In this document: one piece after another, positions 5,366 to 63,490 of the stretch
Layout of the letters: every line of letters begins with the position of its first letter
How positions within the stretch are numbered: position 1 is the first letter of the stretch
Source of the DNA: an uncultured Acidobacteriota bacterium
Lineage (GTDB): Bacteria > Acidobacteriota > Vicinamibacteria > Vicinamibacterales > CAVVIG01
Direction: 5' to 3'
Assembly: GCA_963711765.1 (NCBI GenBank)
Contig: CAVQFC010000002.1
Span: 777,644 to 841,643, forward strand
Length of the DNA: 64,000 nt
Notes under the pieces: generated by a model
Databases searched by the model: none
What the model saw: the letters and a program-made list of their open reading frames with translations, nothing else
What the model was told of the DNA's origin: nothing
Program-made: the position numbers and the translations under genes

Positions 5366-5491
5366 GTTAGAGCGGCGTAATCGACTAATGAAGGTGTATG
5401 GAGACGGGCCCGGCTTACAAGTCCGTACGGTGGACGACGAATCCGTAAGGCTGAGGCACCGTTCCTTGCATCGTCGAACGTGCGGAGGTTG

Positions 5492-5647: not shown

Positions 5648-5662
5648 ACGTTGAAGCGCACC

Positions 5663-5750
5663 GCGACCCTTTGAGGGTCGCGCGAGACGGAGCGTGGAGT
5701 GTAGCGCGACCCTCTCAGGGTCGCGTTAGACGCGGGCCTGAACGGCCCGC
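5663..5750. repeat. REP-like hairpin cluster (3 hairpins)
   Basis: gcgaccctttgagggtcgc (5663-5681), gcgcgaccctctcagggtcgcg (5704-5725) and gcgggcctgaacggcccgc (5732-5750). The composite 5701-5752 is near-identical to 49349-49400. Confidence 0.7.
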
Positions 5751-5783
5751 GCCACGGAGAGGGCCCGCACGCCCTTTTGGAGT

Positions 5784-8016: not shown

Positions 8017-8185
8017 GGCAGGATTCCTTTCAAGCGAAATTATAGAAGACCTGGATGGATCGATCGATCGTCCTCAAAATGCTGCACTCACCAGCTCAGC
8101 GATCCGATCAGTCGACCAAACGTCAAAAACATGGGCGAAATTGCCATCTTGGGATGGCAAGGCAAATGCACTTAACGCAAACATT

Positions 8186-8989
8186 ATGAGGTCCCGACAC
8201 ATCGTCCCAGCAGCAGTGCTCGCCGCCGCCACGCTGGTCGCCGTTCCAGCTTTTGCTGGTCAGCAGCATGGCCGTCCCGAAGGCCACCGCGCGGCCGCCG
8301 CTCCGCAAGCCCGACCGCAGGCGCAAGCGCAGCCACACGCCCAGGCTGCTCCGGCACCGCGTCCGCAGAGTGCAGCGCCCGGCGCCGTCCGGGCGCAGGG
8401 ATCCGCGCCGCACTACAACGCCAGTAACAACGCGTATGTAGGCCAAGCGGTTCCGCGCGGCACCGCCGCGCAGCACTATGCACCGAACTACGCGACGAAC
8501 TATCACGGTGCGCCGAACTATCACTACGCGCCGAATTACCACTACGCGCCATACGCGCCGCGCTACTACGCGCCGCATGCGTACGGCTACGGCTACTACG
8601 CGCCACGATACTACGGCGCCGGATACGCGTTCAGGCCGTGGTTCTCGGTCGGCTTCGGATTCTCCGCAGGCTATCCGGTGCCGTACAGCTATGCGTATCC
8701 CTATCCGGTGCCGGTCTACGGCTACGCACAGCCACAGAGTGTGGTGGTCAACCCCGGATCGAGCTACGGCGGCATCAGCTTCCAGGTGACACCGTACGAA
8801 GCTGACGTCTACATTGACGGCAACTTCGCGGGCCATGCCAGCGACTTCGACGGCAGCAAGCAGCCGATGACGCTGGCGGCGGGCACGCACCACATCGAGA
8901 TCGTCGCGAACGGCTACCAGACCTCGAGCTTCGAGGTGAACGTGCAGGCCGGCCAGATCATCCCGTATCGCGGCGACCTGCAGCGATAG
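8186..8989 (+). CDS. secreted Tyr/Pro/Ala-rich protein with C-terminal PEGA domain
   Basis: ATG 8186 precedes signal-like 'AAVLAAATLVAVPAFAG'. The low-complexity stretch 'YHGAPNYHYAPNYHYAPYAPRYYAPHAYGYGYYAPRYYGAGY' follows, then PEGA-like 'ISFQVTPYEADVYIDGNFAGH...GTHHIEIVANGYQ'. The upstream part of ORF 7919.. was rejected as antisense to the peptidase. Confidence 0.7.
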   Translation: MRSRHIVPAAVLAAATLVAVPAFAGQQHGRPEGHRAAAAPQARPQAQAQPHAQAAPAPRPQSAAPGAVRAQGSAPHYNASNNAYVGQAVPRGTAAQHYAPNYATNYHGAPNYHYAPNYHYAPYAPRYYAPHAYGYGYYAPRYYGAGYAFRPWFSVGFGFSAGYPVPYSYAYPYPVPVYGYAQPQSVVVNPGSSYGGISFQVTPYEADVYIDGNFAGHASDFDGSKQPMTLAAGTHHIEIVANGYQTSSFEVNVQAGQIIPYRGDLQR

Positions 8990-8990
8990 A

Positions 8991-9081
8991 CAGTCTCCAG
9001 TCGTCAGTCAGTCGCCGGTCGGGCGGGTGGCTGACGACTATCGAGTGACTGGAGACTGACGATTGACGACTGACGACTGGA
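8991..9081. repeat. inverted heptanucleotide arrays (CAGTCnn x3 / GACTGnn x5) forming a long hairpin
   Basis: cagtctc cagtcgt cagtcag lies at 8991-9011. gactgga gactgac gattgac gactgac gactgga lies at 9047-9081. The arms 8991-9002 and 9047-9058 are perfectly complementary (12 bp), with an inner 8-bp pair at 9002-9009/9031-9038. The element sits between convergent genes. Confidence 0.7.
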
Positions 9082-9156
9082 CGTGTTCCGGTCGCACTCC
9101 GACCCCGACCAGCCGCGCCGGTATACGGCGGAGCATCGGGAACCGCCGCAGCAGCT

Positions 9157-10266
9157 TCAGGACGAACGGGAGTTGCTGCGGCCCTTTTCTTTCAGGGCAG
9201 GACCAAGAAACCGGTTCTGCACCATCAGCTGGGCGCCCTGAGTCCAGCGCGTCGGCAGCTCGCGCCTCTTCTGAACCCTCGCCAGATCCTCTTCCGAGCA
9301 GCGTCCGCGTCTGAGCGGCTCAGCGAGCGCGTTGGCGGCGGCCACCGCATCCTGAATCGCCAGGTTGATGCCGACGCCGCCGATCGGCGACATCGCGTGC
9401 GCCGCGTCGCCGATGCAGAGCAGTCCGGGCCGATGCCACGATCGCAGACGATCGACGACCACCGTGAGCAGTTTGATGTCGTCCCAATCCTTCAGTTCGT
9501 CGACGCGGTCACGCATGAACGGCGCGATCGAGATCAGCGTCGCGCGGAACGCCTCGAGACCGCGCGCCTTGACGTCCTCGATTCCACCTTTGGGGATGAC
9601 ATACGCGCATTGCCAGTAATCGCCGCGATCGAGCATCACCAGGATGTGACCGCTGGCGATGTTGCCGAGTGCCTGAGGCGGATCGCCCGGGCGTCTGGAC
9701 ACGCGCATCCAGAGCACGTCCAGGGGCGCACCGAAGTCCTCGCGCTGAAATCCGGCACGCTCCCGAACAATCGAATGGCGGCCGTCCGCTCCGATCACCA
9801 GGTCCGCGCGAATCTCCTCTCGAGCGCTCGGCGTCTGGACGACGACGCCAGCGATGCGACCGCCATCCTGAATCAGGTCAACGACCTCAGTTCGTCGACG
9901 CAGTTCGAAGGCTGGTAAGGCGCGGGCCTGCTCGGCGAGAAAGTCGAGGAAGTCCCACTGCGGCATCAGCGCGATGAACTTGCAGTGGGTCGGGACGTGG
10001 CTGAAATCGGCAATCGTCACCGTTTCGCCGGCGAGATTGCCGCGCAGTTCGCGTACTTCCGTGTGCGGACGCTTCAGGAACTCGTCCACGATGCCAAGCT
10101 CGTAGAGCACTTCCAGCGTGGACGGATGGACGGTGTCGCCGCGGAAATCGCGCAGGAAGTCGGCGTGTTTCTCGAGCACCAGCGTCTGCACGCCGGCGCG
10201 AGCGAGGAGAAATCCGAGCATCATCCCGGCCGGACCGCCGCCGGCGATGACGCATTGCGTTTTCAT
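9157..10266 (-). CDS. FAD-dependent monooxygenase (UbiH/PheA-type)
   Basis: Start chosen at 'MKTQCVIAGGGPAGMMLGFLLARAG' (GxGxxG). 'CIGDAAHAMSPIGGVGINLAIQDA' is an FAD/substrate motif. Confidence 0.85.
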   Translation of the reverse strand: MKTQCVIAGGGPAGMMLGFLLARAGVQTLVLEKHADFLRDFRGDTVHPSTLEVLYELGIVDEFLKRPHTEVRELRGNLAGETVTIADFSHVPTHCKFIALMPQWDFLDFLAEQARALPAFELRRRTEVVDLIQDGGRIAGVVVQTPSAREEIRADLVIGADGRHSIVRERAGFQREDFGAPLDVLWMRVSRRPGDPPQALGNIASGHILVMLDRGDYWQCAYVIPKGGIEDVKARGLEAFRATLISIAPFMRDRVDELKDWDDIKLLTVVVDRLRSWHRPGLLCIGDAAHAMSPIGGVGINLAIQDAVAAANALAEPLRRGRCSEEDLARVQKRRELPTRWTQGAQLMVQNRFLGPALKEKGRSNSRSS

Positions 10267-10369
10267 CCGCCCATGATAGGCCGCGGAAGTCGTGAGCGAC
10301 ACACGCAGGTGCGCGTGCACCGCTGTGGCGGAGCCGAGCAGGGTCGGCTCCGCCGCAAGGATCGGGGGG

Positions 10370-10891
10370 TTACTGCACCTTCACCAGCTGCCCGCGCATC
10401 ACCCCGCCCGGGTTCTGAGACGTGTGAATGTTGAAATAGTAGTTGGAGGGGTTGTTGATGATGGTCTGGGCGAGCGCAGGGTCGACGCCCGATTGAGTCG
10501 CCGTGAAGGTGCCGGAGCCATTGGTGAGCGAAATCGTCCCCGCCTTTGCCACGGCGGGCACCACCACCGGACCCGGCCCGACGCCGAAAGCGCCCTGGTG
10601 AATGTGCGCGATCGTCACCACGGTGGTCGACGGAAATCCGAACATGCTCGCGGTGAAGTCCACGCTCGCGGTCGAAATGTTCCCGGAGGCATCCTTCGTC
10701 ACGTTGAAGACGATGGTCGCGGTGCCGGAACCCACCGACTCGGAGTTGGTGATCGGCGGGGTTTCGTTCGCCGGCGAGAGCGTCGCCGTGAAGGTTGGCG
10801 CACCGTTGGTCGGACTGGTGGATGAGGAAGACGAACCGCAGCCGGCGGCGCACAACGCGAGGACAACGGCGAGGATGGTTGAAGCTTTCAT
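10370..10891 (-). CDS. CHRD domain lipoprotein
   Basis: Lipobox 'LALCAAGCGSS'. CHRD-like 'ANETPPITNSESVGSGTATIVFN', 'AHIHQGAFGVGPGPVVV' and 'YFNIHTSQNPGGVMRGQL'. Confidence 0.75.
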   Translation of the reverse strand: MKASTILAVVLALCAAGCGSSSSSTSPTNGAPTFTATLSPANETPPITNSESVGSGTATIVFNVTKDASGNISTASVDFTASMFGFPSTTVVTIAHIHQGAFGVGPGPVVVPAVAKAGTISLTNGSGTFTATQSGVDPALAQTIINNPSNYYFNIHTSQNPGGVMRGQLVKVQ

Positions 10892-10909
10892 CGGCAGACT
10901 CCTTCGAAA

Positions 10910-11860
10910 TCAGAAAAACTTGCGGGACAGGTTGAAGCCGAGATACAGGCTGTCGGGGTTTCCGCCGCGTGCGAGCTGCCCATAGGTCACCGCGGACGAA
11001 TTGGCGAACGTAATCGCGAAGACGTGGGCGCCCACACGCGTCTCGAGCGAGAACGCGAACTCGGCGTTACGGGGCGTGTAGCCGGCCGCGCGCGGCGAAC
11101 CTTCCACCACGATGTAGAGGGTCGGCGTGAGACGGACGCGCGTGCCCAGTCCCACGTAGAAAGTGTTCCGCACCTCCTCCCCTACGTCCGGCAGCGTGTT
11201 GTGGACGAACATCGGCGTCGCGTACAACGCCAGCCTCGACGCGACCGTCCTCGAGATGACCGCGCCGAACGCCGGCGCCCAGCGCTCGCTGAAATTGTCG
11301 CCGCCCTCGATGTTCACGATTGCGGAGATGCCGAGCGGCATCGAATCGGTCTGATGGAACGCGTCGATCTTCGTGCCGAGCGAGATCGTTCGATCGACGT
11401 TGGTCCGCGATGCGATCAGCTCGACGTGCTTGAACAGGCCGAACCGGTATTCGAAGTCGATCGTGGCGCCCTCGTCGAGCCCGAACAAGTTCGACAACTG
11501 CGTCTCGAAGCTGTCCTCGACCAGGTTCTCGTTGAAGCGGTGCGTCAGATGGAAGTTGCCGGCGTGCCGCGGCAGCGGCAGCGTGGTCGGCAGATTGACC
11601 AGGCTGTAGTCCGGTTCCAACGGACGCAGCCTGGCGTCATCGTCATCGTCGGCCAGCGACGCCATGTCGTCGCCCGCTGACGGTGTGGCGGCGGCCTCGG
11701 CGGTCGGTGGCTGCGCCGGTTCGGGAGGCTGCGCCTGCGTGACTTTCGCGCCGGCGAGCATGAATATCAGGAACAGAGCGGTAGCGGTCGCGCATGAGTG
11801 TCGGATCACGATGTGCCTCCCTGAGCAAGGTCCGGACCAGCCGTAACCTGCTGAGAACAA
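10910..11860 (-). CDS. outer-membrane beta-barrel protein (DUF5777-like)
   Basis: Hydrophobic leader 'ATALFLIFMLAGAKVTQA', alternating beta pattern and C-terminal '...LYLGFNLSRKFF'. 'LVNLPTTLPLPRHAGNFHLTHRF' resembles DUF5777 as I remember it. The true start may be internal. Confidence 0.6.
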   Translation of the reverse strand: MFSAGYGWSGPCSGRHIVIRHSCATATALFLIFMLAGAKVTQAQPPEPAQPPTAEAAATPSAGDDMASLADDDDDARLRPLEPDYSLVNLPTTLPLPRHAGNFHLTHRFNENLVEDSFETQLSNLFGLDEGATIDFEYRFGLFKHVELIASRTNVDRTISLGTKIDAFHQTDSMPLGISAIVNIEGGDNFSERWAPAFGAVISRTVASRLALYATPMFVHNTLPDVGEEVRNTFYVGLGTRVRLTPTLYIVVEGSPRAAGYTPRNAEFAFSLETRVGAHVFAITFANSSAVTYGQLARGGNPDSLYLGFNLSRKFF

Positions 11861-11900
11861 TAGAGCGCTGACGGTTCGACGTTACTGCGAACGTAAGGCT

Positions 11901-11993
11901 TTACGGTCTGCGATAGACGACACGGCCGCCGACCATCGTCATCGCGACAACCATCTGTTCGATCTGTTTGGCGGGAACCGTGAGTAGATCGCC
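11901..11993 (-). pseudogene. 3' relic of an amidohydrolase gene (last ~30 codons)
   Basis: The minus-strand translation 'GDLLTVPAKQIEQMVVAMTMVGGRVVYRRP*' matches the typical amidohydrolase C-terminus pattern. There is no start codon or upstream body, and it abuts a heptamer repeat. Confidence 0.3.
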
Positions 11994-11994
11994 T

Positions 11995-12014
11995 GACTGC
12001 CGACTGCCGACTGA
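11995..12014. repeat. heptanucleotide tandem repeat (GACTGCC x3)
   Basis: gactgcc gactgcc gactga read directly. Confidence 0.6.
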
Positions 12015-12077
12015 TGTTACCGTCCAGCCGCCCGTTTGGGTGATTCATGCCGTCCATGGTTCTGTCACGATTGCCGC

Positions 12078-12977
12078 ATGTCCAACGACCTTCTGACAAG
12101 CTTTTCGAATCAACTCGCGGATGCCGTGTCCGCCGCTTCACCGTCCGTCGTCCAGGTGCAGGGACGCCGACGGCCTGCCAGCGGCCTCGTCTACGCTGAA
12201 AATGTGGTACTGACGACCGTCCGCGCGCTGGGCCGCGAGGATGGCCTGCACGTCAGGCGCGGTGATGGCCAGACGCTGGAGGCCGAGCTCGCGGGATGGG
12301 ATCCCACCACCAGTCTTGCGGTGCTGCGGGTGCCGGACCTTGGCACGCCCGCAATTGCTCCCTCCGCAGTCGCACCCCGGGTCGGCCATCTCGCGATCGC
12401 CGTCGCCCGCTCATGGAGCAACGTCGTCACCGCGAGCGCCGGGTTGGTGTCGGTGATCGGCGGACCGCTGCCGACCGGACGGCGCCGCGCCATCGATCAG
12501 GTGATCCGGACGACCGCGCCGATGCACGATGGCTTCGCTGGCGGCGCCTTTCTCGATACCGACGGCGGACTGATCGGCATCGCCACGTCCACGACCATTC
12601 GGGGGACCGGCGTCGTCATTCCTGCGTCAATCGCGTGGAAGACCGCGGCGACCGTCCTCGAGCACGGCAGTCTCAAGCGTGGCTACCTCGGCATCGCCGG
12701 CCAGCCGGTGGCGTTGCCCGAGAACCAGCAGTCGCCCGGCGGACGCGAGCAGGCGCTGCTGGTGGTCGGCGTGACCAGCGCGAGCCCGGCCGCGACGGCC
12801 GGCGTGCTGGTCGGTGACGTACTCCTCGAATTCGACGGTCATCCGATCGAGTCGCCCGAAGAACTGCTCGACCTGCTGCTCGGCGACCGGGTCGGACGCC
12901 CTGTACCGTTGAAGGTCCTGCGGGGCGGCAACGTCACCGATCTGCAGGTCACCATTGGTGAGCGACCGGTCCACTGA
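12078..12977 (+). CDS. HtrA/S1C-like protein with PDZ domain, catalytic triad absent (pseudoprotease)
   Basis: It aligns by eye to the neighbouring HtrA at 13446-14372. 'LTTVRAL' corresponds to 'LTNSHVV' (His->Arg). 'TTSLAVLRV' corresponds to 'HTDLAVVRI' (Asp->Ser). 'HDGFAGGAFL' corresponds to 'NPGNSGGPLV' (Ser->Ala). The PDZ-like 'RGYLGIAGQPV...VVGVTSASPAATAGVLVGDVLLEFDG' is retained. No signal peptide. Confidence 0.8.
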   Translation: MSNDLLTSFSNQLADAVSAASPSVVQVQGRRRPASGLVYAENVVLTTVRALGREDGLHVRRGDGQTLEAELAGWDPTTSLAVLRVPDLGTPAIAPSAVAPRVGHLAIAVARSWSNVVTASAGLVSVIGGPLPTGRRRAIDQVIRTTAPMHDGFAGGAFLDTDGGLIGIATSTTIRGTGVVIPASIAWKTAATVLEHGSLKRGYLGIAGQPVALPENQQSPGGREQALLVVGVTSASPAATAGVLVGDVLLEFDGHPIESPEELLDLLLGDRVGRPVPLKVLRGGNVTDLQVTIGERPVH

Positions 12978-12981
12978 GCGT

Positions 12982-13359
12982 ATGCGGGTATTGCTGGTCG
13001 GTACGGTGTCGGAAAGGGCGCGCCTTCGCTCACAGGTGAACGGCGCGATGGAAGTCGCCGGCGAGTTCGACTCGCTGGCGGCCGCGCGCCTGGCCGAGCG
13101 CGACCACGACGCGATTCTGGTCGCGCCCGACGCGCCGGATGGCGATGACGAAGGCATTGACGAGCCGCTGACGCCGAGAGAAGTGCAGGTGCTGGAGCTG
13201 CTCGCGGAAGGCCTGACGAACAAAGCGATTGCCGCACGGTTGCAGATCAGCGACCAGACGGTGAAGTTCCACGTCTCGTCGATTTCCGGAAAGCTCGGCG
13301 CCGTCAACCGCACCGACGCCGTTCGACGAGCGGTCCGGCGGGGGCTCATTACGCTATAG
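12982..13359 (+). CDS. LuxR-family HTH regulator with truncated, degenerate receiver
   Basis: ATG lies 4 nt after the upstream stop. The ~60-aa N-terminus 'MRVLLVGTVSE...HDAILVAPD' stops after the beta3-equivalent and lacks the acidic DD pair. The C-terminal 'LTPREVQVLELLAEGLTNKAIAARLQISDQTVKFHVSSI' is a LuxR/GerE HTH. Confidence 0.8.
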   Translation: MRVLLVGTVSERARLRSQVNGAMEVAGEFDSLAAARLAERDHDAILVAPDAPDGDDEGIDEPLTPREVQVLELLAEGLTNKAIAARLQISDQTVKFHVSSISGKLGAVNRTDAVRRAVRRGLITL

Positions 13360-44294: not shown

Positions 44295-45554
44295 TCAGGC
44301 GCCGCTCTCTTCGGAACGACACCCCGTGCGCCTCCGGCCCGAGCCACGTCACCACGAAGCGCGACGACGAACACGAGCGAGACGAGCCCGCCCATCGCCT
44401 GCGTGTAGGTGAACCGCTCGCCGAGCGCCGACTCGACGTAGGGAATGCTGGCCGCGAACATCACGCCGAGCTGATACGCGAAGCCCGGGAAAGAACCCGC
44501 GCAGATGGTTCGGCGACAGCTCGTTGATGTGCGCCGGAATCACGCCCCAGGCGCCCTGCACGAAGAACTGCATCAGGAATACGCCGATGAGAATCGCGCC
44601 ACGGGCTGTGGCCCGGCGATCCAGAACGGCACGACGCACGAGTGCCGAAGACCATCGGCGATCATCATCGCGCGCCGCCGGCCGGCGCGGTCCGAGTAGT
44701 AACCGAAGACCAGGCCGCCGAGAATCGCGCCGACGCCGGCGAGCATCGTGATGTCGGCGATCTGCGTCTTGGCGTAGCCGACCGTGCCGAGCAGCGTCGG
44801 GTACATGTCCTGCGTGCCGTGCGACATGAAGTTCATCATCGTCATCAGCAGCACGAGGTAGACGAAGCGCTGCCAGTACACCGGCAGCGAACTGCAGATA
44901 GCTGTTCCAGTCGGTCCGGTGCTCGTGCCACGCCTCCGACTCCTTCACGTTGCGCGCGGATGAACAGCGACAGCAGCGCCGGCAGCCCGCCGAGGAAGAA
45001 CATCAGGCGCCAGCCGTTGCCCGGGATAGCAGCGCGTTGAAGGTACGGGTAGACCAGCCGGAACGCGAGCGCGGCGAGCAGGTTGCCGAGCGCGTAGCCT
45101 TCCTGCAGCAGGCCCGAGAGCAGGCCGCGCAGCCGCGGCGACGCCGACTCGAGCGCCAGCGACGCGCCGACGCCCCACTCGCCGCCCATGCCGATGCCGA
45201 ACAGCATGCGCAGCGAGCAGGAACGCCTGATAGCTCGGCGCCAGACCCGGAGAGCACCGAGATGACGGCGTAGAAGATCACGTTGATCATCAGCGGCAGC
45301 CGGCGCCCGAGCCGGTCGGCCATGATGCCGAAGATGATCGCGCCGAGCGGACGCGTGGCCAGCGCGACGGTCAGCGTGAACGCGATGTCCGGACGCGAGC
45401 GGCCGAACGACTTCGCGATGTCGTCGATGACGAGCGTGAGGATGAAGAAGTCGAACGCGTCGAGCGTCCAGCCGAGAAAACCGGCGAGGACGGCGTTGCG
45501 CTGATTCTTGCGCTGCTCCTTCGTCATCGGCGCCGCGACGCTGCTGTTGTTCAT
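44295..45554 (-). pseudogene. MFS transporter (metabolite:H+ symporter-like), about eight frame breaks
   Basis: The segments 'FGIMADRLGRRLPL', 'RMLFGIGMGGEWG', 'GWRLMFFLGGLPALL', 'VYWQRFVYLVLLMTMMNF', 'FLMQFFVQGAWGVIPAHINEL' and 'FAASIPYVESALG' each lie in a different frame from their neighbour. Confidence 0.7.
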
Positions 45555-45570
45555 CGAGAGTGAGGATACC

Positions 45571-47041
45571 TCAGGACCTTGGTGCCAGAGCGAGATGCGC
45601 GGCGCCGGCGACGAAGAAGCCGACGAACCACGCGTAGTCGAAGAGCGGCTTGAGCGCCGGAATCACCAGACCGCCCCACGCGAAGAAGCAGCCGATCGCG
45701 GTGGCGGCGATGGCGCGCGGTGTTCCAGCCGCCGATATTCGCCGGCGGCGAGGTAGAGATCTTCCAGATCGCAGCGTCCGGCGCCGGACGATCCAGTAGT
45801 CGACCACCAGCACGCCGGCAATCGAGCCGAGGCCGCCGGAGTACCCGAGCAGCCAGGTGTAGATGTAGCCGGATGGATCGGCGAGCAGCCGCCACGGCTG
45901 AATCGCGATGCCGAGCAGGCCGGTGATCAGGCCGCCGGTCTTGAAGCTGATCAGACGCGGAAACGCGTTGGCGAAATCGTTGGCCGGCGACACCACGTTC
46001 GCCGCGATGTTGACCGCGATGGTCGCGACCACGACCGTGAACATCGAGATCGCCACCACCACCGGCGAGCTGAATCGTCCGACCAGCTGCACCGGATCCC
46101 AGATCGATTCGCCGTAGATGATCGCGGTCGCGCTGGTGATCATCACGCCCATCGCCGCGAACAGCGACATCGTCGTCGGCAGCGCGACCACCTGGCCGAT
46201 GATCTGCTCGCGCTGGCTCTTGCCGAAGCGGGTGAAGTCCGGCATGTTCAGCGACAGCGTCGCCCAGTAGCCGATCATCGCCGTCAGCGACGGCACGAAG
46301 ACCGGCATGAATTCGGCGAGCGTGTGAAACTTGCCCGGCTGCGCCAGCAGCGGACCGAGACCGTTGGCGCGCGACACCGCCCACCACAACAAGCGCCGCC
46401 GTCATCACCAGCACGAACGGCGCGGCCCAGTTCTCGACCGCGCGCAGCAGATCCATGCCGCGATAGATGATGAAGACGTTGAGGCTCCAGAACAGCAGGA
46501 ACGACAGCCATTCGGTGGTGGTGTGTCCGGCGACACCCGCGCCGAGCAGCAGCGGCCACGCCGGCATCACGGTCCGGAAAAACGTCTGCAGCGCTTCACC
46601 GCCGATCCAGGCCTGGATCCCGAACCATCCGCAGGCGACCAGCGCCCGCATCAACGCCGGCACGTTCGACCCGAGCGTGCCGTAGGCCGCTCGCGCGAAC
46701 ACCGGAAACGGAATCCCGTACTTGGTGCCGGGATGCGAATTCAACAGGATCGGAATCAGGACGATGGTGTTGCCAAGCAGGATGGTGAAGAGCGCCTGCG
46801 ACCAGTTCATGCCGGACGCCATCAGCCCGGACGCCAGCATGTAGGTGGGAATACAATGCGCCATGCTGACCCACAGCGCGGCGTAGTTGTAGGTCGACCA
46901 GGTGCGCCGGGACAGCGGAACCGGCGCCAGATCCTCGTTGTAGAGCGGGCTGGCCTCGATACGGCGGGTGTCGATCAACTCGACCCGTCCGTCAGCCAGC
47001 CGTCTTTCGTTCGCCATCGTCTGAACAGGAGTTCCGGTCAT
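45571..47041 (-). pseudogene. NCS1 family nucleobase/allantoin:cation symporter, about three frame breaks
   Basis: The N-terminal 230 aa are in ORF 45551..47041 ('NEDLAPVP...RTWSTYNYAALWVSMAHCIPTY'). The remainder is in ORF 45571..46392, with an out-of-frame patch around 45740-45790. The first break is near 46390. Confidence 0.8.
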
Positions 47042-49400: not shown

Positions 49401-50507
49401 GAAGAATAGCCCTCGGCTTCGTATCCGCCGCGGTAGTCCTTTTCGGTCGGCCGTCGAATCTTCGACTGCGCGACGACACGATCGCGGCGCAGGCCGACGA
49501 TGTCCTTCAGACTGGTCCAGCCGCTGTCGGCGTGTTGTTCGAGGAAGCTCGCAAGCCCGTGTTCAGCTCCTTGATCACGTTCGGGCCCATCGCGTGATCG
49601 AGCATCGCAGCGGTGCACACCTGCACCGTGCCGCATCCGAGCAGGAAGTAGTTCAGCGCGTGCTCGAACGTCGAGATGCCGCCGATGCCGGAAAAGCTGC
49701 GGTCAGGGAACGCCTGCGTCAGCTGCGACATCTTGGCGAGCGACAGCGGCAGGATCGCCGGACCGCCGAGACCGCCGGTCGACACCAGGCCGTCGACGTT
49801 GACCTCGAAATCCAGCGTCTCGGGATCGATCAGCGGCAGCGACGTGAACGTGTTGGACGACACGATCGCGTCGGCGCCGCCCAGAAAGGCGCCGCGCGCC
49901 TCGACGACGATGTCGGTCGTTGACGGCGTGAGCTTGGCCCAGACCGGAATCCGCGCGACCTCCTTCACGACTTTCGTCACGATCGACACCAGCTCCTGGT
50001 CCTTGCCGACGTTGGAGCCCATGTCCGGCCGGTCCATGTGCGGACAGGACAGGTTCAATTCGAGCGCGTCGCAGCCTTCGTCCTGGCACGCCGTCGCCAG
50101 CGTCTGCCAGTGCCTCAGCTCCGTGTCGTTGCCGGAGCCGGCCATGATCGACGCGACCAGCACGTGATCCGGGAAGCGCCTTCTTGATGCGGCCGAGCCG
50201 CGGCACCCACCAGTCGAGCGTCTTGTCCGAGATCAGCTCCCAGTTCCACGACGAGTGCAGCGCGGCGCCGGGTCGCTTCTTCATCGACAGCCGCGGCGAG
50301 TCGGCGTCCGCGCGCAGGAACTTCGTCTTCGGGCCGAAGACGTTGACCACCGGGTGCAGGCCGATCGTCTTGGTGACCACACCGCCCCACCCGGCTTCGA
50401 ACGCGCGGACGATGTTCGACTCCGATTCGGTCGGCGGCGCCGACGACAGGAGGAACGGATTCGGACATCGCACGCCGGTGAACGTGCGTCGAAAGGTCGA
50501 CGGCCAT
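49397..50507 (-). pseudogene. dihydropyrimidine dehydrogenase PreA-like / DHODH-family FMN enzyme, about three frame breaks
   Basis: 'MAVDLST', 'FTGVRCPNPFLLSSAPPT...', 'ELNLSCPHM...GGADAIVSSNT...GGLGGPAILP' and the tail '...GLASFLEQHADSGW' lie in different frames. Breaks are near 50483, 50172 and 49560. Confidence 0.7.
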
Positions 50508-56150: not shown

Positions 56151-57626
56151 TCAGAACCAGCGCGAGATGGTGACTTTCTTGTCCGTATAGAACTCGATCC
56201 CGTCGCGGCCGTGCGCTTTCAGGTCGCCGAAGAAGCTGTCCCTGGCGCCGCCGAACGGGAAATAGGCCATCGGCGCCGCCACGCCGATGTTGACGCCGAC
56301 CATCGACGCGGTCGCGTGCTTCGAAAACTCCCGAGCGGCCTTGCCGCTCGACGTAAAGATCGACGTGGCGTTGGCGTTGGGATGCTGCTTCATCATCGCG
56401 ATCGCCTCGTCCAGCGTCTTGACCGGACAGATCGACGCCACCGGTCCAAAAATCTCTTCCCGCCCAATCGCCATCTTCATCGACACATCGTCGAATACCG
56501 TGGGGCCGACGAAGTATCCGTTCGGACGATCCTCGACGCGCGTCCTGCGGCCGTCCACCAGAAGATTCGCACCCTCGCTGACGCCCTTATCGATGTAGCC
56601 GAGCACTCGATCGCGGTGCCCCGCACTGATCACCGGTCCCATCGTGACGCCAGGCAGCGAACCGTCGCCGACCCTCAACGCCTTCGCCGCTTCGACCATG
56701 CGGTCGCGCGCCTCGCGGTGGGCGTCGCCGACCGGGATCAGCATGCTGCCGGCAAGGCAGCGCTCCCCTGCGCATCCATAAAACGACTCGGAAATGATCG
56801 CCATCGACCGATCGAAGTCAGCGTCGGGCATCACCACGACGAAGTTCTTGGCGCCGCCGAGCGCCTGGGCGCGCTTTCCTGCGTGGGTCGCACGCTGATA
56901 CACGTGACGCGCGACCGCGGTCGAGCCCACGAACGACACCGCGCGAATGCCCGGGTGATCGCAGATTGCGTTGACGACGTCGCGGCCGCCGTTCACCAGG
57001 TTGACGACGCCAGGCGGCAGGCCGCACTGCTGCAGCAAATCGACCATCAGGCGCTGCGATAGCGGCACCTGCTCGGACGGCTTCAGGATGAACGTATTGC
57101 CGGTCGCAATCGCGAACGGCAGAAACCACATCGGCACCATCGCCGGAAAATTGAAGGGCGCGATCGCCGCCACGACACCGAGTGGCTGACGGACGACGTG
57201 GCAGTCGACGCCGGCGGAAATATCCTCGAGCCCGACACCCTGCATCAGCGACGGCATGCCGCACGCCACCTCGACGCATTCGATGCCGCGCCGGACACTG
57301 CCCCGCGCCTCGTCGAGCGTCTTGCCATGCTCGGTCGTGACTGTTCGGGCCAGCTCCTCGAATCGCTCTTCGCAGAGTGCCTTGAACCGGTACAACACCT
57401 GCGTGCGCGCGTTCACCGGGGTATCGCGCCAGGCGGGAAAGGCCTCGGTAGCCGCCGCGACGGCGGCGTCCACGTCGGCGGCTGTGGACAGCGGCGTCCG
57501 CCCGATGATGTCGCCCACAGCGGGATTGTGGACGTCGAAGAACTCGGTGGCGCGAGCCGCAACCCAACGGCCACCGACGAAGTTGTCGAGCGTTCGGACG
57601 TTGGTGTGGCTGGCGACTTCCGGCAT
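56151..57626 (-). CDS. mmsA: CoA-acylating (methyl)malonate-semialdehyde dehydrogenase
   Basis: Start at 'MPEVASHTNVRTLDNFVGGRWV'. ALDH blocks are 'FPAMVPMWF', 'GGAKNF' and 'GCAGERC'. The upstream 100 codons of ORF 56151..57926 were rejected. Confidence 0.85.
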   Translation of the reverse strand: MPEVASHTNVRTLDNFVGGRWVAARATEFFDVHNPAVGDIIGRTPLSTAADVDAAVAAATEAFPAWRDTPVNARTQVLYRFKALCEERFEELARTVTTEHGKTLDEARGSVRRGIECVEVACGMPSLMQGVGLEDISAGVDCHVVRQPLGVVAAIAPFNFPAMVPMWFLPFAIATGNTFILKPSEQVPLSQRLMVDLLQQCGLPPGVVNLVNGGRDVVNAICDHPGIRAVSFVGSTAVARHVYQRATHAGKRAQALGGAKNFVVVMPDADFDRSMAIISESFYGCAGERCLAGSMLIPVGDAHREARDRMVEAAKALRVGDGSLPGVTMGPVISAGHRDRVLGYIDKGVSEGANLLVDGRRTRVEDRPNGYFVGPTVFDDVSMKMAIGREEIFGPVASICPVKTLDEAIAMMKQHPNANATSIFTSSGKAAREFSKHATASMVGVNIGVAAPMAYFPFGGARDSFFGDLKAHGRDGIEFYTDKKVTISRWF

Positions 57627-57672
57627 GTGCGCTCCTGTCGCGGACCTCCGGGTCCGCTTCATCAAAACGCGA

Positions 57673-58926
57673 TTATACGTTCGGGACCAGGACCGATCGG
57701 GCCTCGCGCTTCCAGCCTTCGTCCCACGTCGGCCGCGCGGACCGGCGGGCGCCGAGCCGCAGCCGGTCGAGTTGTTTCTGGTCGCCCGGGAACGTCTCGA
57801 ACAGGTCGAACAGTACGCTCGCAAGCTGCGTCGCGGTCGAAAACAGCAGGCCGTTGTCGCCGTGCCTGACCCGTTCGGCGAGGCAGGCGCCGTAGTCGAG
57901 CGCGCAGACCGGGACGCCGGCGCCAAACAGGTCGGCGACCTTCATCGGGATGTCGAGACCGGACGAGGATCGGTGCAGGCACAGGCCAAGGTCGGCGCTG
58001 CCGACGACTCGCGGGTAGTCGTCCGGCTCGAGCCAACGGGCGCGGAGCTGGACCCGGCGGGCCGGCAGCCCCGCGAATCGCCGTTCGAACTCGGATCGCC
58101 GGGCGCCGTCGCCGGTAACCAGCAGCACGATGTCCGGAAACCGTCGTCCGACCGAAGCGGCTTCCCATCCGCGGATCCGCTCTTCGAGCCGAGGCAGCAT
58201 CTCGATCACCAGATCGAAATCCTCGTCCTCAGTCCAGCTGGTCGGACAAACGATGAAACCGACCGCGCCGCTGTGGACGCCGAGGCGCGAGAACAGCGCC
58301 TGGCGGAACTGGACGCGCTCGGCGCGCTCCATCGACGCGAACGCCGACGCCGGACGGTCGTAGAACACGCTGGCGTTGGACACGCCGAATCGGCTTTCGA
58401 GAAACGCCGCCAGCCCGCGCGATACACAGAGGTTGGCGTCGACGCGCCGGGCATCGCGGCGTTCGTACCAGCGCCCCAGACGCACCGCGGGATGCCAGCG
58501 GCCGAGCCGTAACGCCAGCAAGGTGTAGCCGAGGTTGTGCCAGTCGGTCACGAAACGCACGCCCTTCGCTCGCAGCGAAAACCAGGTCACGGCGAGCGTC
58601 GGAAACGCCGGCGGGTTCTGGACGAGCACCAGGTTCGGGCGCTTCAGCCTTCTGAGAATCCGCCACAGGCGAATACTGATTCGTGCGGCGTCGAACAGTC
58701 CGGCGGCCGCATATGTCGATCCTGACAGGCTCGGACCGTGGCGAAGCGTGACCGGCGTAAAGCGGTGCAGCGTGATCCGCGGGTTGTTGGCGATCGCGTT
58801 CGGAACGGATGTACCCTCGTAACCGACGAGGTCGACGTCCACGCCGTCGGCCGCCAGCGCGTGCGCGTGATAAAGCATGCGGGCGCTGCGTCCGAGATCG
58901 GCGAGGGCGACGACGACGGCTCTCAT
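57673..58926 (-). CDS. ALG1-like (GT33-type) beta-mannosyltransferase homologue
   Basis: Blocks that I recognise from eukaryotic ALG1: 'LGRSARMLYHAHALA', 'VQNPPAFPTLAVTWF', 'TDWHNLGYT', 'PTSWTEDEDF' and 'WLEPDDYPRVVGSADLGLCLHRSSSGLDIPMKVADLFGAGVPVCA'. No N-terminal TM. Confidence 0.8.
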   Translation of the reverse strand: MRAVVVALADLGRSARMLYHAHALAADGVDVDLVGYEGTSVPNAIANNPRITLHRFTPVTLRHGPSLSGSTYAAAGLFDAARISIRLWRILRRLKRPNLVLVQNPPAFPTLAVTWFSLRAKGVRFVTDWHNLGYTLLALRLGRWHPAVRLGRWYERRDARRVDANLCVSRGLAAFLESRFGVSNASVFYDRPASAFASMERAERVQFRQALFSRLGVHSGAVGFIVCPTSWTEDEDFDLVIEMLPRLEERIRGWEAASVGRRFPDIVLLVTGDGARRSEFERRFAGLPARRVQLRARWLEPDDYPRVVGSADLGLCLHRSSSGLDIPMKVADLFGAGVPVCALDYGACLAERVRHGDNGLLFSTATQLASVLFDLFETFPGDQKQLDRLRLGARRSARPTWDEGWKREARSVLVPNV

Positions 58927-58975
58927 GTGGGAAGAAACGCGATCAGGGGGTTGTCGCGAGTTATACCACGGACGG

Positions 58976-59795
58976 TCAGCGCGGCGTCAGCATCCGCGCA
59001 AGCAGGTTGGCGGCCACCCGTCGCCGGTACGTTGCAGTCGAGCGGATGTCGTCGATCGGAACGATCTCGTCCATGAGCAGCCGCTGAGCCTCTTCGACCG
59101 AAGCTCCTGCTGCGAGCGCCGCCTCGGTGCGCCCCGCGCGCACGACGGTCGGCGCGACGCTGCCGAGCGCGATGCGCGGCCGGTCGCCGGTCACGACCGC
59201 CATCACGACTTTCGAGATTGCCTGCGCGGCACGCGTGCCGACCTTCCGAAACCACTGACGGCCGCGCACGGCGGGAATTTCGAGCGCCACGATCAGCTCG
59301 TCCGGGCGGCGAACGCTCCGGCGGTAGCCGGTGTAAAACGCCATGAACGGCACGCGCCGCGTGTCCGACGCGCTGCGCAGTACCACGACCGCCTCGGCAG
59401 CGGCAAGCACCGGCAGTGTGTCGCCGGCCGGCGAGGCGTTGGCTACGTTGCCGCCGATCGTGCCGCGGTTCTGAATCTGAACGCCGCCGACTTCACGCGA
59501 GGCCGCGGCCAAGCATCGGCAGCCGCTGATTGACGAGGGTCGAGCGGATGATCGCGGCATGGGTCGCCATCGCGCCAATCGACAACAAGGCACCGCGCGG
59601 TTCGATCGCTCGAAGCCGCTCGAGCCGCCACAGGTTCAGAAAACGCGTCTGCTCGAGCGTGCCGAAGTTGAGCGCGACATACAGGTCCGTGCATCCGGCC
59701 ATCGGGACCAGCGGCCCTTCGTCGCGTAGCATCTTCAGCGCGTCGGTCAGCGACCTGGGCTCGAGGAGTGTTTTATTCGAAACCGATCCGAGCAT
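58976..59795 (-). pseudogene. xanthine dehydrogenase FAD-binding subunit (CoxM/XdhA-type), one frame break
   Basis: 'PMAGCTDLYV' is in ORF 59493..59795. 'AASREVGGVQIQNRGTIGGNVANASPAGD' continues in the ORF 58976..59593 frame. The break is near 59510. Confidence 0.8.
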
Positions 59796-59810
59796 CGAGA
59801 TTCGTGCCTC

Positions 59811-60271
59811 TCATCGGACATTCCGGCCATTGCGGCCTGCCGCCTTACGAATCGACCGGTAGATGGCCGAGTATCCGGTGCAGCGGCACAGGTTTCCCGC
59901 GAGGCCGGTCTTCATCTGATCGAGGCTCGGATGTCTTTCCGAGCGCGACCGCCGCGAGGATCATGCCGGGCGTGCAGATGCCGCACTGCGCGCCGCCATG
60001 CTCGACGAAGGTCCGCTGCAGCGGATGGTGTCCACCGAGGCCCTCGATCGTCGTCAACGCGCGTGCCGGCGGCGTGCGCGACGGGCACGAGGCACGAATT
60101 GACCGGCGCGCCGTCAACGAGCACGGTACAGGCGCCGCACTCGCCTTCGCCGCACCCTTCCTTCGTGCCGGTGAGGCCAAGGTCCTCGCGAAGCACATCG
60201 AGCAGGCGCCTCATGGGATTGACGGCGAGTTTCGTCCGCCGCCCATTCAACAGGAAGGACACAGAGGTCAC
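59811..60271 (-). pseudogene. (2Fe-2S)-binding subunit of xanthine dehydrogenase, two frame breaks
   Basis: GTG start overlaps the Mo-subunit stop (GTGA). 'GCGEGECGACTVLVDG', 'QCGICTPGMI' and 'NLCRCTGY' each fall in a different frame. Breaks are near 60060 and 59935. Confidence 0.75.
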
Positions 60272-62406
60272 TTCGGTGTCCTTTGGGGTGAGATCGTCGG
60301 CGCGAGCATGATCCGTTCGGGCGTGGCCGGGATCGCACGGAGGTCGTAACCGGCGTGCCGCAGCGCGTTGATCACGGCCGGCGCCGGGCCGTCGATCGGC
60401 ATCTCGCCGACGCCTTTCGCGCCGAACGGCCCGTGCTGGTACGGATTCTCGAGCATCGTCACCTTCAGCGGCGGCGTGTCGAGCGTCGTCGGAATGATGT
60501 AGTTGGTCAGCGTCGCGTTGGCCATCCGGCCGTCGCGCATCACGACGTCCTCGAGCAACGCGTAGCCGAGCCCCTGCGCGCTGCCGCCTTCGATCTGGCC
60601 GGTCGCCAGCATCGGGTGAATGGCCCGGCCGATTTCGTGAACGGTGGTGAACGCAATCGGCTTCACTTCCCAGGTGTCGCGATCGACTTCGACTTCGACG
60701 ACGTCGCACCCCCAGCCGTAGCTGCCGTAGGCATCGCCGCGATAGCTGTCGTCGTCCCAGATCATTTCGGACGGTCGCTCGTAGGCCTTCGTGACGACGA
60801 GCGCACCGTGTCGGCGCAGGTACTCACGGGGCGTCAGCGGACCGAGTCGCTGGCGCATGTCCTGGGCGCAGCGCTCCAGAATCCTCCCGACGACCATGCA
60901 CGTCCGCGACGCGACGGTCGGGCCGCTGTCGGGCACGACGTCGGTATCGGCGTCGTTGACGTCAACGCAGTCGTACGACACGCCCAGCGTGTCGGCAACA
61001 ATCTGCGCCAGCATCGTCCGGGTCCCCTGACCGATCTCGGTGCTGCCGACCAGGACGTTGACCCCGCGATCGGTCAGCTCCAGCGAGGCCTTCGACGCGA
61101 GCTTGATCTCTCCGCCGCCGGTGAAGCCCGACCCGTGGAAAAAGAGCGACAGACCGATGCCGCGGTTGCTACCGGCCAGCGCACGGCGACGAGCGGAGAA
61201 GTTCGTCCGCTTGACCGCTTCGCGCAACACCTGACGGGCGCTGCAGTCGCGGCCGAGCCGCTGGCCGGTCGCGGTGGTGTCGCCCGGCCTGAGCGCGTTG
61301 ATGTCGCGGAGCCGCACCGGATCCATTGCCAGCGCGTCGGCGATGCGATCCATGTGCACTTCGGCCGCGAACTGTGTCTGCGGCGCGCCGAAGCCGCGAA
61401 ACGCGCCGTTCGGCGGCGTGTTGGTCATCGTGGCGCGGCCGCGGATGCGAATGTGGTCGCAGCGGTACGGCCCGCTGGCGTGGATCAGGCCGCGCGACAA
61501 CACGACCGCGCTGAGCGTGGCGTACGCACCGCCGTCGAGTACTGCGTCGACATCCATCGCCGTGATGCGCCCGGCCCGGGTCACGCCGGTCCGATGGCGG
61601 ACGATGGACGGGTGGCGCTTGGTGGTCGCGATCATGTCCTCGACGCGGTCGTAAATCAGCTTGACCGCACGGCCGGACTTTCTGGCGAGCAGCGCCGCGT
61701 GGCCGGCGATCATCGACGGGTATTCCTCCTTGCCGCCAAACCCGCCACCCGTTTCTGTCTGGACGACGCGTACCTTGTCGCCGGGGAGACCGAGCAGCAC
61801 CGTGAGCGCGCGGTGCACATAGTACGGGCACTGCATCGAACCATAGACGGTGATACCGCCGCGCTCCGAAAGCGCGACGACGCCATTGGGCTCGATGTAC
61901 AGCTGCTCCTGGTGGCCGGTCCGGTACTCGCCTTCGACGATCAGATCCGCGGCGGCAAAGCCGTCGGCGAGCGTGCCTTTCTCGATGGTGATTTCCTTGA
62001 ACACAATCGGCGATGACTCGGGATCGTAGTGCGGCGTGGTCTGGCGGTACTCGATCGCGACGTCGGCCGCGAGCAGCGCTTCGCGATCCGCGTGCGCGAG
62101 CAGCACGATCGGCTCGGCGACATGACGAATCTCGCGTTCGGCCAGGCAGGGCTGATCCTCGTCGATCAGCGCCACGACATTGCGGCCCGGGATGTCGCGG
62201 TGGTCGACGATCGTGAATCCGCTGGTGTCGAAGTTGAAGCGAATCGCGGCGATCTCGCCGCGAGGAATCGAAGACCGGATCGTCCGCCCGTACAGCAGAT
62301 CGGGGAAGGCGATGTCGTCGATGTAGCGCGCGGCGCCGGAGGTTTTCGCCGCGCCCTCCTTTCGGAGCACACTGCGACCGACCGCCGCTTTCGATCGCCC
62401 CGGCAT
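60268..62406 (-). CDS. xanthine dehydrogenase molybdopterin-binding subunit
   Basis: 712-aa intact ORF with 'GGGFGGKE', 'AFRGFGAPQ' and 'GVGEMPIDGPAPAVINAL', first in a three-subunit order Mo-FeS-FAD. Confidence 0.85.
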   Translation of the reverse strand: MPGRSKAAVGRSVLRKEGAAKTSGAARYIDDIAFPDLLYGRTIRSSIPRGEIAAIRFNFDTSGFTIVDHRDIPGRNVVALIDEDQPCLAEREIRHVAEPIVLLAHADREALLAADVAIEYRQTTPHYDPESSPIVFKEITIEKGTLADGFAAADLIVEGEYRTGHQEQLYIEPNGVVALSERGGITVYGSMQCPYYVHRALTVLLGLPGDKVRVVQTETGGGFGGKEEYPSMIAGHAALLARKSGRAVKLIYDRVEDMIATTKRHPSIVRHRTGVTRAGRITAMDVDAVLDGGAYATLSAVVLSRGLIHASGPYRCDHIRIRGRATMTNTPPNGAFRGFGAPQTQFAAEVHMDRIADALAMDPVRLRDINALRPGDTTATGQRLGRDCSARQVLREAVKRTNFSARRRALAGSNRGIGLSLFFHGSGFTGGGEIKLASKASLELTDRGVNVLVGSTEIGQGTRTMLAQIVADTLGVSYDCVDVNDADTDVVPDSGPTVASRTCMVVGRILERCAQDMRQRLGPLTPREYLRRHGALVVTKAYERPSEMIWDDDSYRGDAYGSYGWGCDVVEVEVDRDTWEVKPIAFTTVHEIGRAIHPMLATGQIEGGSAQGLGYALLEDVVMRDGRMANATLTNYIIPTTLDTPPLKVTMLENPYQHGPFGAKGVGEMPIDGPAPAVINALRHAGYDLRAIPATPERIMLAPTISPQRTPK

Positions 62407-62428: not shown

Positions 62429-63490
62429 TCATGCCGTCTTCCGGAGCCGCTCCTGCGCTCGAATCAACCGGACCACCGCGCGCTCGCACGCGCTCAGCGC
62501 ATGGCGCGCCGGCGCCCGGTTCGATGTCACCGCGATGGTGATGCCTGACAGATAGGCGTCAACGACCACGGGATGGATGTAGCACTTGCGGCAGACCGCC
62601 TTGGTGTTGCCCAACTTCTTCGCGACCGACTCGATCGCCGCGACGATGCGACGCCTGGCGTCGGCGTTCGAGCGGGGCCCGGCGACTTCCGACAGCGCCT
62701 TTGCGGCCAGCACCGTGCCCGCCCACGTGCGGAAGTCCTTGGCCGTGAAGTCTTCACCGCTGACCTCGCGCAGGTAATCATTGACGTCAGCGGAATCGAT
62801 CGTGTGCCTGCTCCCTTCGTCGTCCACGTACTGGAACAGCTCGTGGCCCGGCAGGTCGCGGCAGGCCTTCACGATTCTCGCAAGGCGAACGTCGTGGAGA
62901 TCGACGGCATGAGCGACGCCGCTCTTCCCCCTGAACTCGAAATGGACGTGGGTTCCCTTCACCGCGGCATGGCGATCGCGCATCGTGGTCAGGCCGATCG
63001 ATCCGTTGTCGCGCGCGTACTCCTCGTTGCCGATGCGGATCAGCGTTTTCTCGAGCAGCTGAACCGCGGCGGCCAGCACTTTCCGGCGGGGCAACCCCGC
63101 CTGCCTGATGTCGGCGCCGGTGCGCCGGCGGATCGCCGGCAGCGACTTCGCAAAGGCGATCAGCCGCCCGTACTTCGCCTCGTCCCGGACCTCGCGCCAG
63201 CGCGGGTGGTAGCGGTACTGTTTGCGGCCGCGCGCATCGCGGCCGGTCGCCTGCACGTGCCCGCGCGGGTCGGGACAAATCCAGACGTGGGTCCAGGCCG
63301 GCGGGATGACCAGTGCTTTGATCCGTTGGAGTTCGCCGTGGTTGCCGATCGTGGCCCCGTCGGGTGCCACATATCGCACCCGCGTTTTCGGGCCAATGCG
63401 GCGAATGCCCGGGATTCGGGCGTCGTCGACGTGACGCAGCCCTGCTGCTCTGGCGGAATCGGTTGCGGGCGGCGTGGAACGGATCGCCAT
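62429..63490 (-). CDS. DNA topoisomerase IB (poxvirus-like bacterial type)
   Basis: 'IPPAWTHVWICP', 'ATGRDARGRKQYRYH', 'FEFRGKSG', 'DFRTWAGT' and the catalytic Tyr context 'CRKCYIHP'. Confidence 0.85.
   Translation of the reverse strand: MAIRSTPPATDSARAAGLRHVDDARIPGIRRIGPKTRVRYVAPDGATIGNHGELQRIKALVIPPAWTHVWICPDPRGHVQATGRDARGRKQYRYHPRWREVRDEAKYGRLIAFAKSLPAIRRRTGADIRQAGLPRRKVLAAAVQLLEKTLIRIGNEEYARDNGSIGLTTMRDRHAAVKGTHVHFEFRGKSGVAHAVDLHDVRLARIVKACRDLPGHELFQYVDDEGSRHTIDSADVNDYLREVSGEDFTAKDFRTWAGTVLAAKALSEVAGPRSNADARRRIVAAIESVAKKLGNTKAVCRKCYIHPVVVDAYLSGITIAVTSNRAPARHALSACERAVVRLIRAQERLRKTA

Follow-up and report, generated by a model that had tools for sequence, protein, structure and literature searches.

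To our knowledge, ALG1 (chitobiosyldiphosphodolichol beta-1,4-mannosyltransferase, EC 2.4.1.142; yeast Alg1p, human ALG1), which supplies the initial mannose of the eukaryotic N-glycan, was long held to be a eukaryotic invention of obscure origin. It belongs to glycosyltransferase (GT) family 33; in the CAZy classification, GT33 enzymes are inverting and GT4 enzymes are retaining. Prokaryotic relatives of Alg1 were not found by Lombard 2016 (PMC4973528). More recently, 204 bacterial ALG1 homologues were reported, and a bacterial origin of ALG1 was argued (Xu et al. 2025, 10.1101/2025.10.15.682550). Three of them, GaALG1, PoALG1 and BiALG1 from Gammaproteobacteria, Polyangia and Binatia, are active: they make Man-beta1,4-GlcNAc2-PP-phytanyl (PP, diphosphate) and rescue yeast alg1 (10.1101/2025.10.15.682550). 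Acidobacteriota, gene clusters and oligosaccharyltransferases (OSTs) go unmentioned in that study. Here, we analyzed a window of 64,000 nucleotides (positions 777644-841643 of contig C2, CAVQFC010000002.1) from an uncultured soil Acidobacteriota bacterium of the order Vicinamibacterales. On its minus strand, at 57673..58926, the window carries a gene for a GT33/ALG1-family protein of 417 residues (P0001). This protein has in common with eukaryotic ALG1 a full-length collinear homology, the invariant motifs, a predicted GT-B fold and a cytosolic-face topology. It differs in having no transmembrane anchor, in residing in a bacterium with undecaprenol-type carriers instead of dolichol, and in lacking ALG7, ALG13/14, ALG2/11 and STT3 partners in its host. 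Set beside the assayed GaALG1, PoALG1 and BiALG1 by description, it is of the same family, bacterial and ALG1-like. The kind of GT33 is thus already known; new here is that the gene is an orphan, that the loss of its pathway can be traced and that it is still under selection.

The open reading frame (ORF) is real: it begins with ATG and ends with TAA, and just 20 more codons are open upstream of the ATG. All the ALG1 motifs quoted for it in the original prediction, which had been made from the sequence alone, were found in the translation. It holds GRSARMLYHAHALA, QNPPAFPT, DWHNLGY, TSWTEDEDF and WLEPDDYPRVVGSADLGLCLHRSSSGLDIPMKVADLFGAGVPVCA; further blocks are the N-terminal GRSxRMxYHA loop, a DRP motif and the C-terminal HxSSSGLDxPMKVxDxFGxGxPV donor-site block. 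When compared by BLASTP with a Penicillium protein named as a chitobiosyldiphosphodolichol beta-mannosyltransferase, residues 5-413 aligned with residues 46-454 at 38% identity (E 6e-89). An exhaustive phmmer search of 1.84 billion representatives yielded 933 clusters (50% identity) at E<=1e-30, and the full-length fungal proteins among these matches were 37-41% identical to the query, with E values of about 1e-69. In the reciprocal search from a fungal match (Geopyxis, P0251), solely proteins named GT33 or chitobiosyldiphosphodolichol beta-mannosyltransferase came back. A 29-sequence alignment gave 62 invariant columns common to the bacterial sequences, including those of Rokubacteria, and the fungal ones; these columns span GRSxRMxYHA, QNPP, DWHN, DRP, TSWTxDEDF and the C-terminal SSSGxDxPMK block. 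These results confirm the close homology to ALG1 that had been proposed. The window protein also keeps 46 of the 52 positions that are invariant in 15 bacterial sequences of the cluster type (see below) and 9 fungal sequences. The remaining six bear conservative changes (V7A, G9A, P15A, R121K, A162V and L326I), and the arginines of the GRSxR loop are kept. The GT33 motifs GxxGRSPRMxYH, QNPP, DWHN, DRP, TSWTxDEDF and HxSSSGxDLPMKVxDxFG could be recognized as a complete set. At the N-terminus, the fungal proteins are longer by a hydrophobic stretch of at least about 45 residues. This stretch is absent from the window protein, which begins at the first beta-strand and, as predicted, has no N-terminal transmembrane anchor of the eukaryotic ALG1 type.

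Retaining GT-B enzymes of family GT4 (MshA, BshA, PimB') resemble the window protein in fold and in their generic Pfam GT4-type domains, and best matches in GT4 had been named beforehand as the outcome that would speak against a GT33 enzyme. Pfam returned generic GT-B domains alone (PF13439 at 1e-13, PF13579 and PF13692), and an NCBIfam search gave nothing useful. Searched with phmmer against the PDB sequences as a whole, the window protein had no GT4 match at E<1; a GT4 of ordinary type, encoded in a related cluster, matched 23 GT4 chains at E<1e-5. The AlphaFold2 model (pLDDT 89.1, pTM 0.89) has two Rossmann-like domains in a GT-B fold. Its nearest solved structures according to Foldseek were GT4 GT-B enzymes (TM-score of 0.65-0.73, 13-17% identity), from a library that holds no GT33 structure. 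In a phylogenetic tree, a long branch with 100% support parted the GT33 sequences from cluster GT4 and GT-B outgroups. With the Pfam hits generic, no GT4 match in the PDB and this split in the tree, the protein falls outside CAZy family GT4. By each sequence and fold comparison made, it is a full-length GT33/ALG1-family enzyme and not an ordinary GT4.

In relatives, the GT33 gene lies among genes for making, exporting and transferring a glycan. Homologues from Rokubacteria/Methylomirabilota (49% identity) have as neighbours a gene of the PF00953 GlcNAc-1-P-transferase family, a GT4 gene, an ATP-binding cassette (ABC) exporter and a gene for a giant repeat protein, and an STT3/AglB gene lies directly downstream of GT33. 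An "unknown 372-aa" gene in these clusters was discarded as a wrong-strand shadow of the gene for a 404-residue GT-B enzyme. By tblastn, GT33 homologues 39-46% identical to the window protein were located at 12 loci in other Vicinamibacterales families. The PF00953 gene was present at 12/12 of these loci, the 404-residue GT-B gene and the ABC exporter were present at most, and STT3 was found at 5 on the fetched stretch. Altogether, GT33 stands beside PF00953, GT-B, GT4, ABC and AglB/STT3 genes in four other Vicinamibacterales families as well as in Rokubacteria. At locus L086 (G440:C12, 119-10963), for example, the order is GT4, ABC exporter, 404-residue GT-B, FkbM methyltransferase, STT3/AglB, PF00953 and GT33; this STT3 carries WWDYG and matches Archaeoglobus fulgidus AglB at E 8e-53. 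Similar clusters were seen at L080-L082, L085-L096 and L100, in other Vicinamibacterales families and in Rokubacteria/Methylomirabilota. From its sequence, the PF00953 gene of these clusters is predicted to encode an ALG7-like GlcNAc-1-P transferase, and the clusters resemble a bacterial version of eukaryote/archaea-style N-glycosylation. Their logic is also that of the Campylobacter pgl system (PglC/A/J/H/I, PglK, PglB), with a lipid-linked glycan, an ABC flippase and an STT3-family transferase. The pgl system differs in having no GT33 enzyme and in building a bacillosamine-based heptasaccharide; PglB/STT3 is missing from the genome analyzed here. The ALG-type lipid-linked oligosaccharide clusters with AglB/STT3 in Vicinamibacterales and Rokubacteria (L080-L096) contain a homologous GT33 of 41-49% identity, and the sub-clade of the window protein nests among theirs. 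In contrast to these clusters, the host and nearly its whole family are without their PF00953 transferase, 404-residue GT-B, GT4, exporter and STT3.

The host assembly comprises 5.44 Mb in 4 contigs, with the window on contig C2, and was scored 55.8% complete. As the original prediction had stated, the window contains no further glycan-assembly genes: no homologue of STT3, the cluster PF00953 transferase or the other cluster GT-B enzymes was detected there by tblastn, and the matches on contig C2 fell at 30-127 kb. In the 4 contigs of the host genome, no STT3 was found with the Pfam model or with two bacterial STT3 queries, and no orthologue of the cluster PF00953, 404-residue GT-B or GT4 genes was found either. 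Hence the combination of STT3/AglB with acceptor-building enzymes that defines an N-glycosylation pathway was not encountered in this genome. GT33 might still feed STT3/AglB-dependent N-glycosylation in the host, with the other genes located elsewhere or missed by the assembly, which is rich in frameshifts as well as incomplete. This alternative is encouraged by the relatives. In a 301-genome sample of the order, STT3 was present in 25/25 genomes that carry a GT33 of the cluster type only. Furthermore, in G464, a genome of the same family, a GT33 orthologue 74% identical to the window protein shares its strand with a 213-residue ORF, an ABC exporter, STT3, MFS (major facilitator superfamily) and LysR genes, which come after it in this order. 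However, STT3 was found in only 2 of the 37 family genomes that are at least 85% complete, namely, G487, which has a cluster-type GT33, and G464, and it was absent from two same-genus genomes searched. The 404-residue GT-B is likewise absent from 59/61 family genomes, its orthologues being confined to the same two. We therefore regard ongoing N-glycosylation through STT3 as very unlikely, and its refutation is largely in hand.

The G464 locus (L097; G464:C4:458000-477900, 4288-13080) has the same backbone as the window locus, including an NDH2-like gene that precedes GT33, and its STT3 bears WWDHG instead of WWDYG. This arrangement is likely an intermediate or ancestral state of the window locus, judging from gene order and sequence. 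G464 also holds a second, divergent GT33 copy (L098).

Phylogenetic analysis placed the window sub-clade, which is monophyletic with 100% support, among the OST-linked bacterial sequences. Its nearest outgroup (sister) is P0124, a metagenomic protein whose gene is followed after 17 nt by STT3. P0132 (52% identity) was rejected as nearest outgroup: it is an orthologue full of frameshifts, its contig is noisy, and its purine context is the same. The window sub-clade sits on a short branch of 0.28 substitutions per site. Eukaryotic (fungal/anchored) sequences form a separate clade with 97% support; five of the rows called eukaryotic were so labelled solely by their N-terminal hydrophobic anchor. 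Support for the deeper nodes of the GT33 tree is weak, and we make no claim as to which bacteria stand closest to eukaryotes. Because the window clade nests in bacteria and the eukaryotes form a clade of their own, the gene is not a recent acquisition from a eukaryote. GT33 is also common in this lineage. A match was found in 57/61 sampled genomes of the same GTDB family, mostly at 65-95% identity, the four genomes without one being G009, G396, G572 and G600. Close relatives (66-97% identity) all came from soil metagenome-assembled genomes labelled Acidobacteriota or Vicinamibacterales. With these counts, the 933 clusters and the separate eukaryotic clade, the suggestion in the original prediction of a gene rare in bacteria or horizontally acquired from eukaryotes had to be dropped. 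Its description of GT33 as eukaryotic/archaeal did not stand either, the reliable prokaryotic homologues being bacterial (10.1101/2025.10.15.682550). Another outcome that it had considered adverse, a sizeable and ordinary clade of bacterial members whose function is known, came half true: the clade is large and some of its members have ALG1 activity, but the window sub-clade has lost the pathway context. Taken together, the tree and the gene clusters indicate that the GT33 gene has been inherited vertically within Vicinamibacterales from an OST-linked ancestor.

The orphan GT33 gene is under strong purifying selection. Comparison with relatives of 94-97% identity gave a dN/dS ratio of 0.03-0.06; with more distant ones, for which dS is saturating, the ratio was 0.14-0.24. 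These values bear directly on the idea that the gene is a functionless, decaying relic of the lost glycosylation operon. Its partners have indeed been lost, and GT33 is broken into pieces with in-frame stops in one family genome, G586. At that site (G586:C6:421781-422991), three overlapping pieces with in-frame TGA stops and 51-58% identity were found, which may be a pseudogene or an assembly artefact. In the host, however, the catalytic motifs are intact and so is the whole gene, despite the frameshift-rich assembly, and the protein has its matches in 57/61 family genomes. A decaying relic is already contradicted by the selection data, and we give it next to no weight.

The setting of the window gene was then compared with 83 related loci, in which genes were called by a heuristic based on third-codon-position GC content (GC3) and clustered. 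A constant backbone emerged, consisting of a molybdopterin oxidoreductase, an NDH2-like oxidoreductase, sometimes a topoisomerase IB, GT33, and further on MFS, LysR, histidine kinase and RNA recognition motif (RRM) protein genes. The immediate surroundings of GT33 were variable. In many loci, xanthine dehydrogenase (XDH) genes lie upstream, and mmsA, hydantoinase, allantoinase and allantoicase lie downstream; elsewhere, the neighbours are MFS, DUF6986, N-acetyltransferase, GYD and other genes. In 44/75 orthologous loci, a nucleobase-catabolism gene was present within 4 kb of GT33; this number splits into 34/40 at 76% identity or more to the window protein and 10/35 among the rest. Uricase was detected in 22/61 family genomes, all of which carry GT33, and another 34 genomes have GT33 without uricase. 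The locus behaves like a hot spot, with nucleobase-catabolism genes coming and going on either side of a fixed GT33.

Such a setting could mean that GT33 was recruited to nucleobase catabolism as a functional member of an XDH-ureide operon, where it would glycosylate either a small molecule (purine, ureide or pyrimidine-derived) or one of the pathway proteins. The arrangement in the window makes this tempting. The three genes XDH FAD subunit, GT33 and mmsA are co-oriented, with gaps of 49 nt (58927..58975, from the XDH FAD-subunit stop to the GT33 start) and 46 nt (57627..57672, from the GT33 stop to the mmsA start), close to the roughly 50 and 46 nt that had been read from the sequence on one strand. 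No promoter-like or terminator-like site was found in either gap, with a scan consensus that may not suit Acidobacteriota. One transcript for these genes is possible, and the purine/pyrimidine genes around GT33 may share it. Members at 67-68% identity have the same XDH-GT-mmsA order, and uricase lies 3.3-6.7 kb from GT33 in 13 of the 14 genomes whose contiguity allows a judgement, the exception being G599. On the other hand, 31/75 loci have unrelated neighbours (MFS, LysR, N-acetyltransferase, GYD and others), and the GT33 gene does not follow the pattern of co-occurrence and joint loss with pathway genes expected of a purine/ureide operon member. The enzyme retains the residues invariant in ALG1 enzymes that act on lipid-linked acceptors, and its sister lineages are OST-linked. 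Since purine genes sit at the locus when present and GT33 stays when they are gone from both sides, GT33 appears to have an independent selected function rather than a role in that pathway. We therefore consider recruitment to nucleobase catabolism improbable. Most likely, the purine/pyrimidine genes are a variable cargo of the locus that does not define GT33 function, and the purine-operon setting is incidental. The original prediction had left two possibilities, a lipid-linked or soluble-acceptor beta-mannosyltransferase or an enzyme glycosylating a small molecule related to the surrounding pathway. Of these, the lipid-linked role is the most plausible. The tie to the purine pathway did not survive the 44/75 loci, the 34 genomes without uricase and the relatives beside STT3/AglB.

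The reading that we favour, with a confidence somewhat above even, is that the window gene encodes an active inverting GT33 left from an ancestral glycosylation operon, probably acting on a lipid-PP-GlcNAc acceptor to make an OST-independent glycoconjugate. Such a GT-B enzyme would most likely use GDP-mannose as its donor and attach the mannose through a beta-1,4 bond to the non-reducing GlcNAc of an acceptor of the polyprenyl-diphosphate-linked GlcNAc-GlcNAc type. Without an anchor, it would work as a peripheral protein at the cytoplasmic face of the inner membrane. The ancestor of the family would have had an ALG1-like gene that shared an operon with genes for an ABC exporter and AglB/STT3, as G464 and the sister lineages still do. 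The host lineage would then have lost the oligosaccharyltransferase, the exporter and the acceptor-making enzymes, while GT33 stayed at the same chromosomal position. As the partners are lost and GT33 is kept under purifying selection, it must, on this reading, contribute to some STT3-independent glycoconjugate. A polyprenyl-PP-linked GlcNAc acceptor is favoured because the arginine-rich N-terminal loop is kept and because other bacterial homologues act on GlcNAc2-PP-phytanyl. A donor may be at hand as well. A phosphomannomutase gene (manB) lies beside a guanylyltransferase ORF on host contig C4 (C4:1178477-1180654; L104 8477-10654). This ORF of 268 residues has a mannose-1-phosphate guanylyltransferase of the Rv3264c type as best match, over profile positions 98-334 of 352, and has probably lost its N-terminus through a frame break. 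The host therefore probably has genes for GDP-mannose synthesis, and GDP-mannose is probably available.

Several observations weigh against this reading. The guanylyltransferase ORF is partial and scores below the curated cut-off, and a profile search found no bifunctional ManC type (TIGR01479) in the host genome. Acceptor-making enzymes of the cluster kind were not detectable in this genome; therefore, a GlcNAc2-PP-lipid acceptor is not assured. The N-terminal loop departs from the family consensus by G9A and P15A. Homologues from Methylomirabilota (Rokubacteria) and Deltaproteobacteria were inactive on GlcNAc2-PP-phytanyl (10.1101/2025.10.15.682550), and ALG1 activity should therefore not be assumed for each bacterial member. 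The completeness of 55.8% is probably a frameshift artefact, yet the host genome alone cannot fully exclude a missed STT3. Finally, the proximity of uricase to GT33 described above also counts against it.

Some of these points would fit a change of acceptor class or donor after the pathway was lost, so that the enzyme might now make a mannosyl or other glycosyl glycolipid, or act on a peptidoglycan precursor or a soluble chito-oligosaccharide. GlcNAc-MurNAc-PP-undecaprenol resembles chitobiose-PP-lipid, the genes for making the usual acceptor are absent, and two bacterial homologues are inactive on it. Besides G9A and P15A, L326I is specific to the sub-clade, being fixed in 8/8 aligned members. 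However, the sub-clade branch is short, just 6 conservative changes were found at 52 invariant positions, and no partner gene suggestive of another substrate turned up. A changed substrate is thus unlikely on this evidence, although it deserves more weight than recruitment to the purine pathway.

If the favoured reading of a retained lipid-linked mannosyltransferase holds, candidate products are O-antigen/lipopolysaccharide (LPS)-type or O-linked glycans. These might be made via a PF00953 initiating transferase that adjoins a Wzy_C ligase and an epimerase on host contig C3. A more specific version, which we hold tentatively and think a little more credible than a changed substrate, is that ALG1 was retained family-wide to build a Man-beta1,4-GlcNAc-type polyprenyl-PP core, which a non-STT3 enzyme (Wzy_C/PglL-like or a PMT_2-type GT-C) would transfer to LPS or O-linked glycoproteins. 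The host genome also has an accessory glycan cluster at C1:16220-26004 (L101 6220-16004). Its genes are an ABC exporter 69% identical to that of the OST clusters, two GT4 genes and one gene each for a methyltransferase, an Acyl_transf_3 protein and a PMT_2-type GT-C membrane protein. This exporter was considered as a conserved partner of GT33 and ruled out. The C1 exporter cluster is strain-specific cargo, because even the same-genus genomes are without the exporter.

The genes next to GT33 in the window are neighbours only and lie outside its function. Upstream on the minus strand is the XDH-type FAD subunit (58976..59795), which is split into two pieces in two frames (59493-59795 and 58976-59593); PF00941 was found in both pieces, and PF03450 was found as well. 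Downstream on the same strand is mmsA (56151..57626, ATG at 57626), encoding an aldehyde dehydrogenase of the methylmalonate-semialdehyde dehydrogenase type (PF00171, E 1e-141). Directly upstream of the XDH genes, at 62429-63490 on the minus strand, is a gene for a bacterial topoisomerase IB (PF01028 and PF21338), which belongs to the backbone in many related loci. Split genes were seen at window positions 45551-47041, 49507-50473 and 58976-60709, corresponding to an NCS1 permease, a DHO_dh-type dehydrogenase, and the XDH FeS and FAD subunits. Orthologues of these genes are intact on a 97%-identical contig (L001), where the FAD subunit is one gene of 272 residues. The frame breaks in the window are thus most likely indel errors of long-read assembly rather than marks of pseudogenes.

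In annotation, a KEGG-style label "beta-1,4-mannosyltransferase (ALG1)" fits this gene as a statement of its family; neither an N-glycosylation pathway nor membership in a purine operon should be read from it. A large and well-sampled bacterial lineage here lets ALG1 be traced from an OST-linked operon to a solitary gene, with G464 preserving an intermediate. That the solitary GT33 is strongly conserved implies a second, OST-independent role of bacterial ALG1, which bears on what ALG1 did before, or apart from, N-glycosylation. If a non-STT3 enzyme does transfer its product, a eukaryote-like core would be carried on LPS or O-linked glycoproteins, and this would bear on the function of bacterial ALG1 before its recruitment by eukaryotes.

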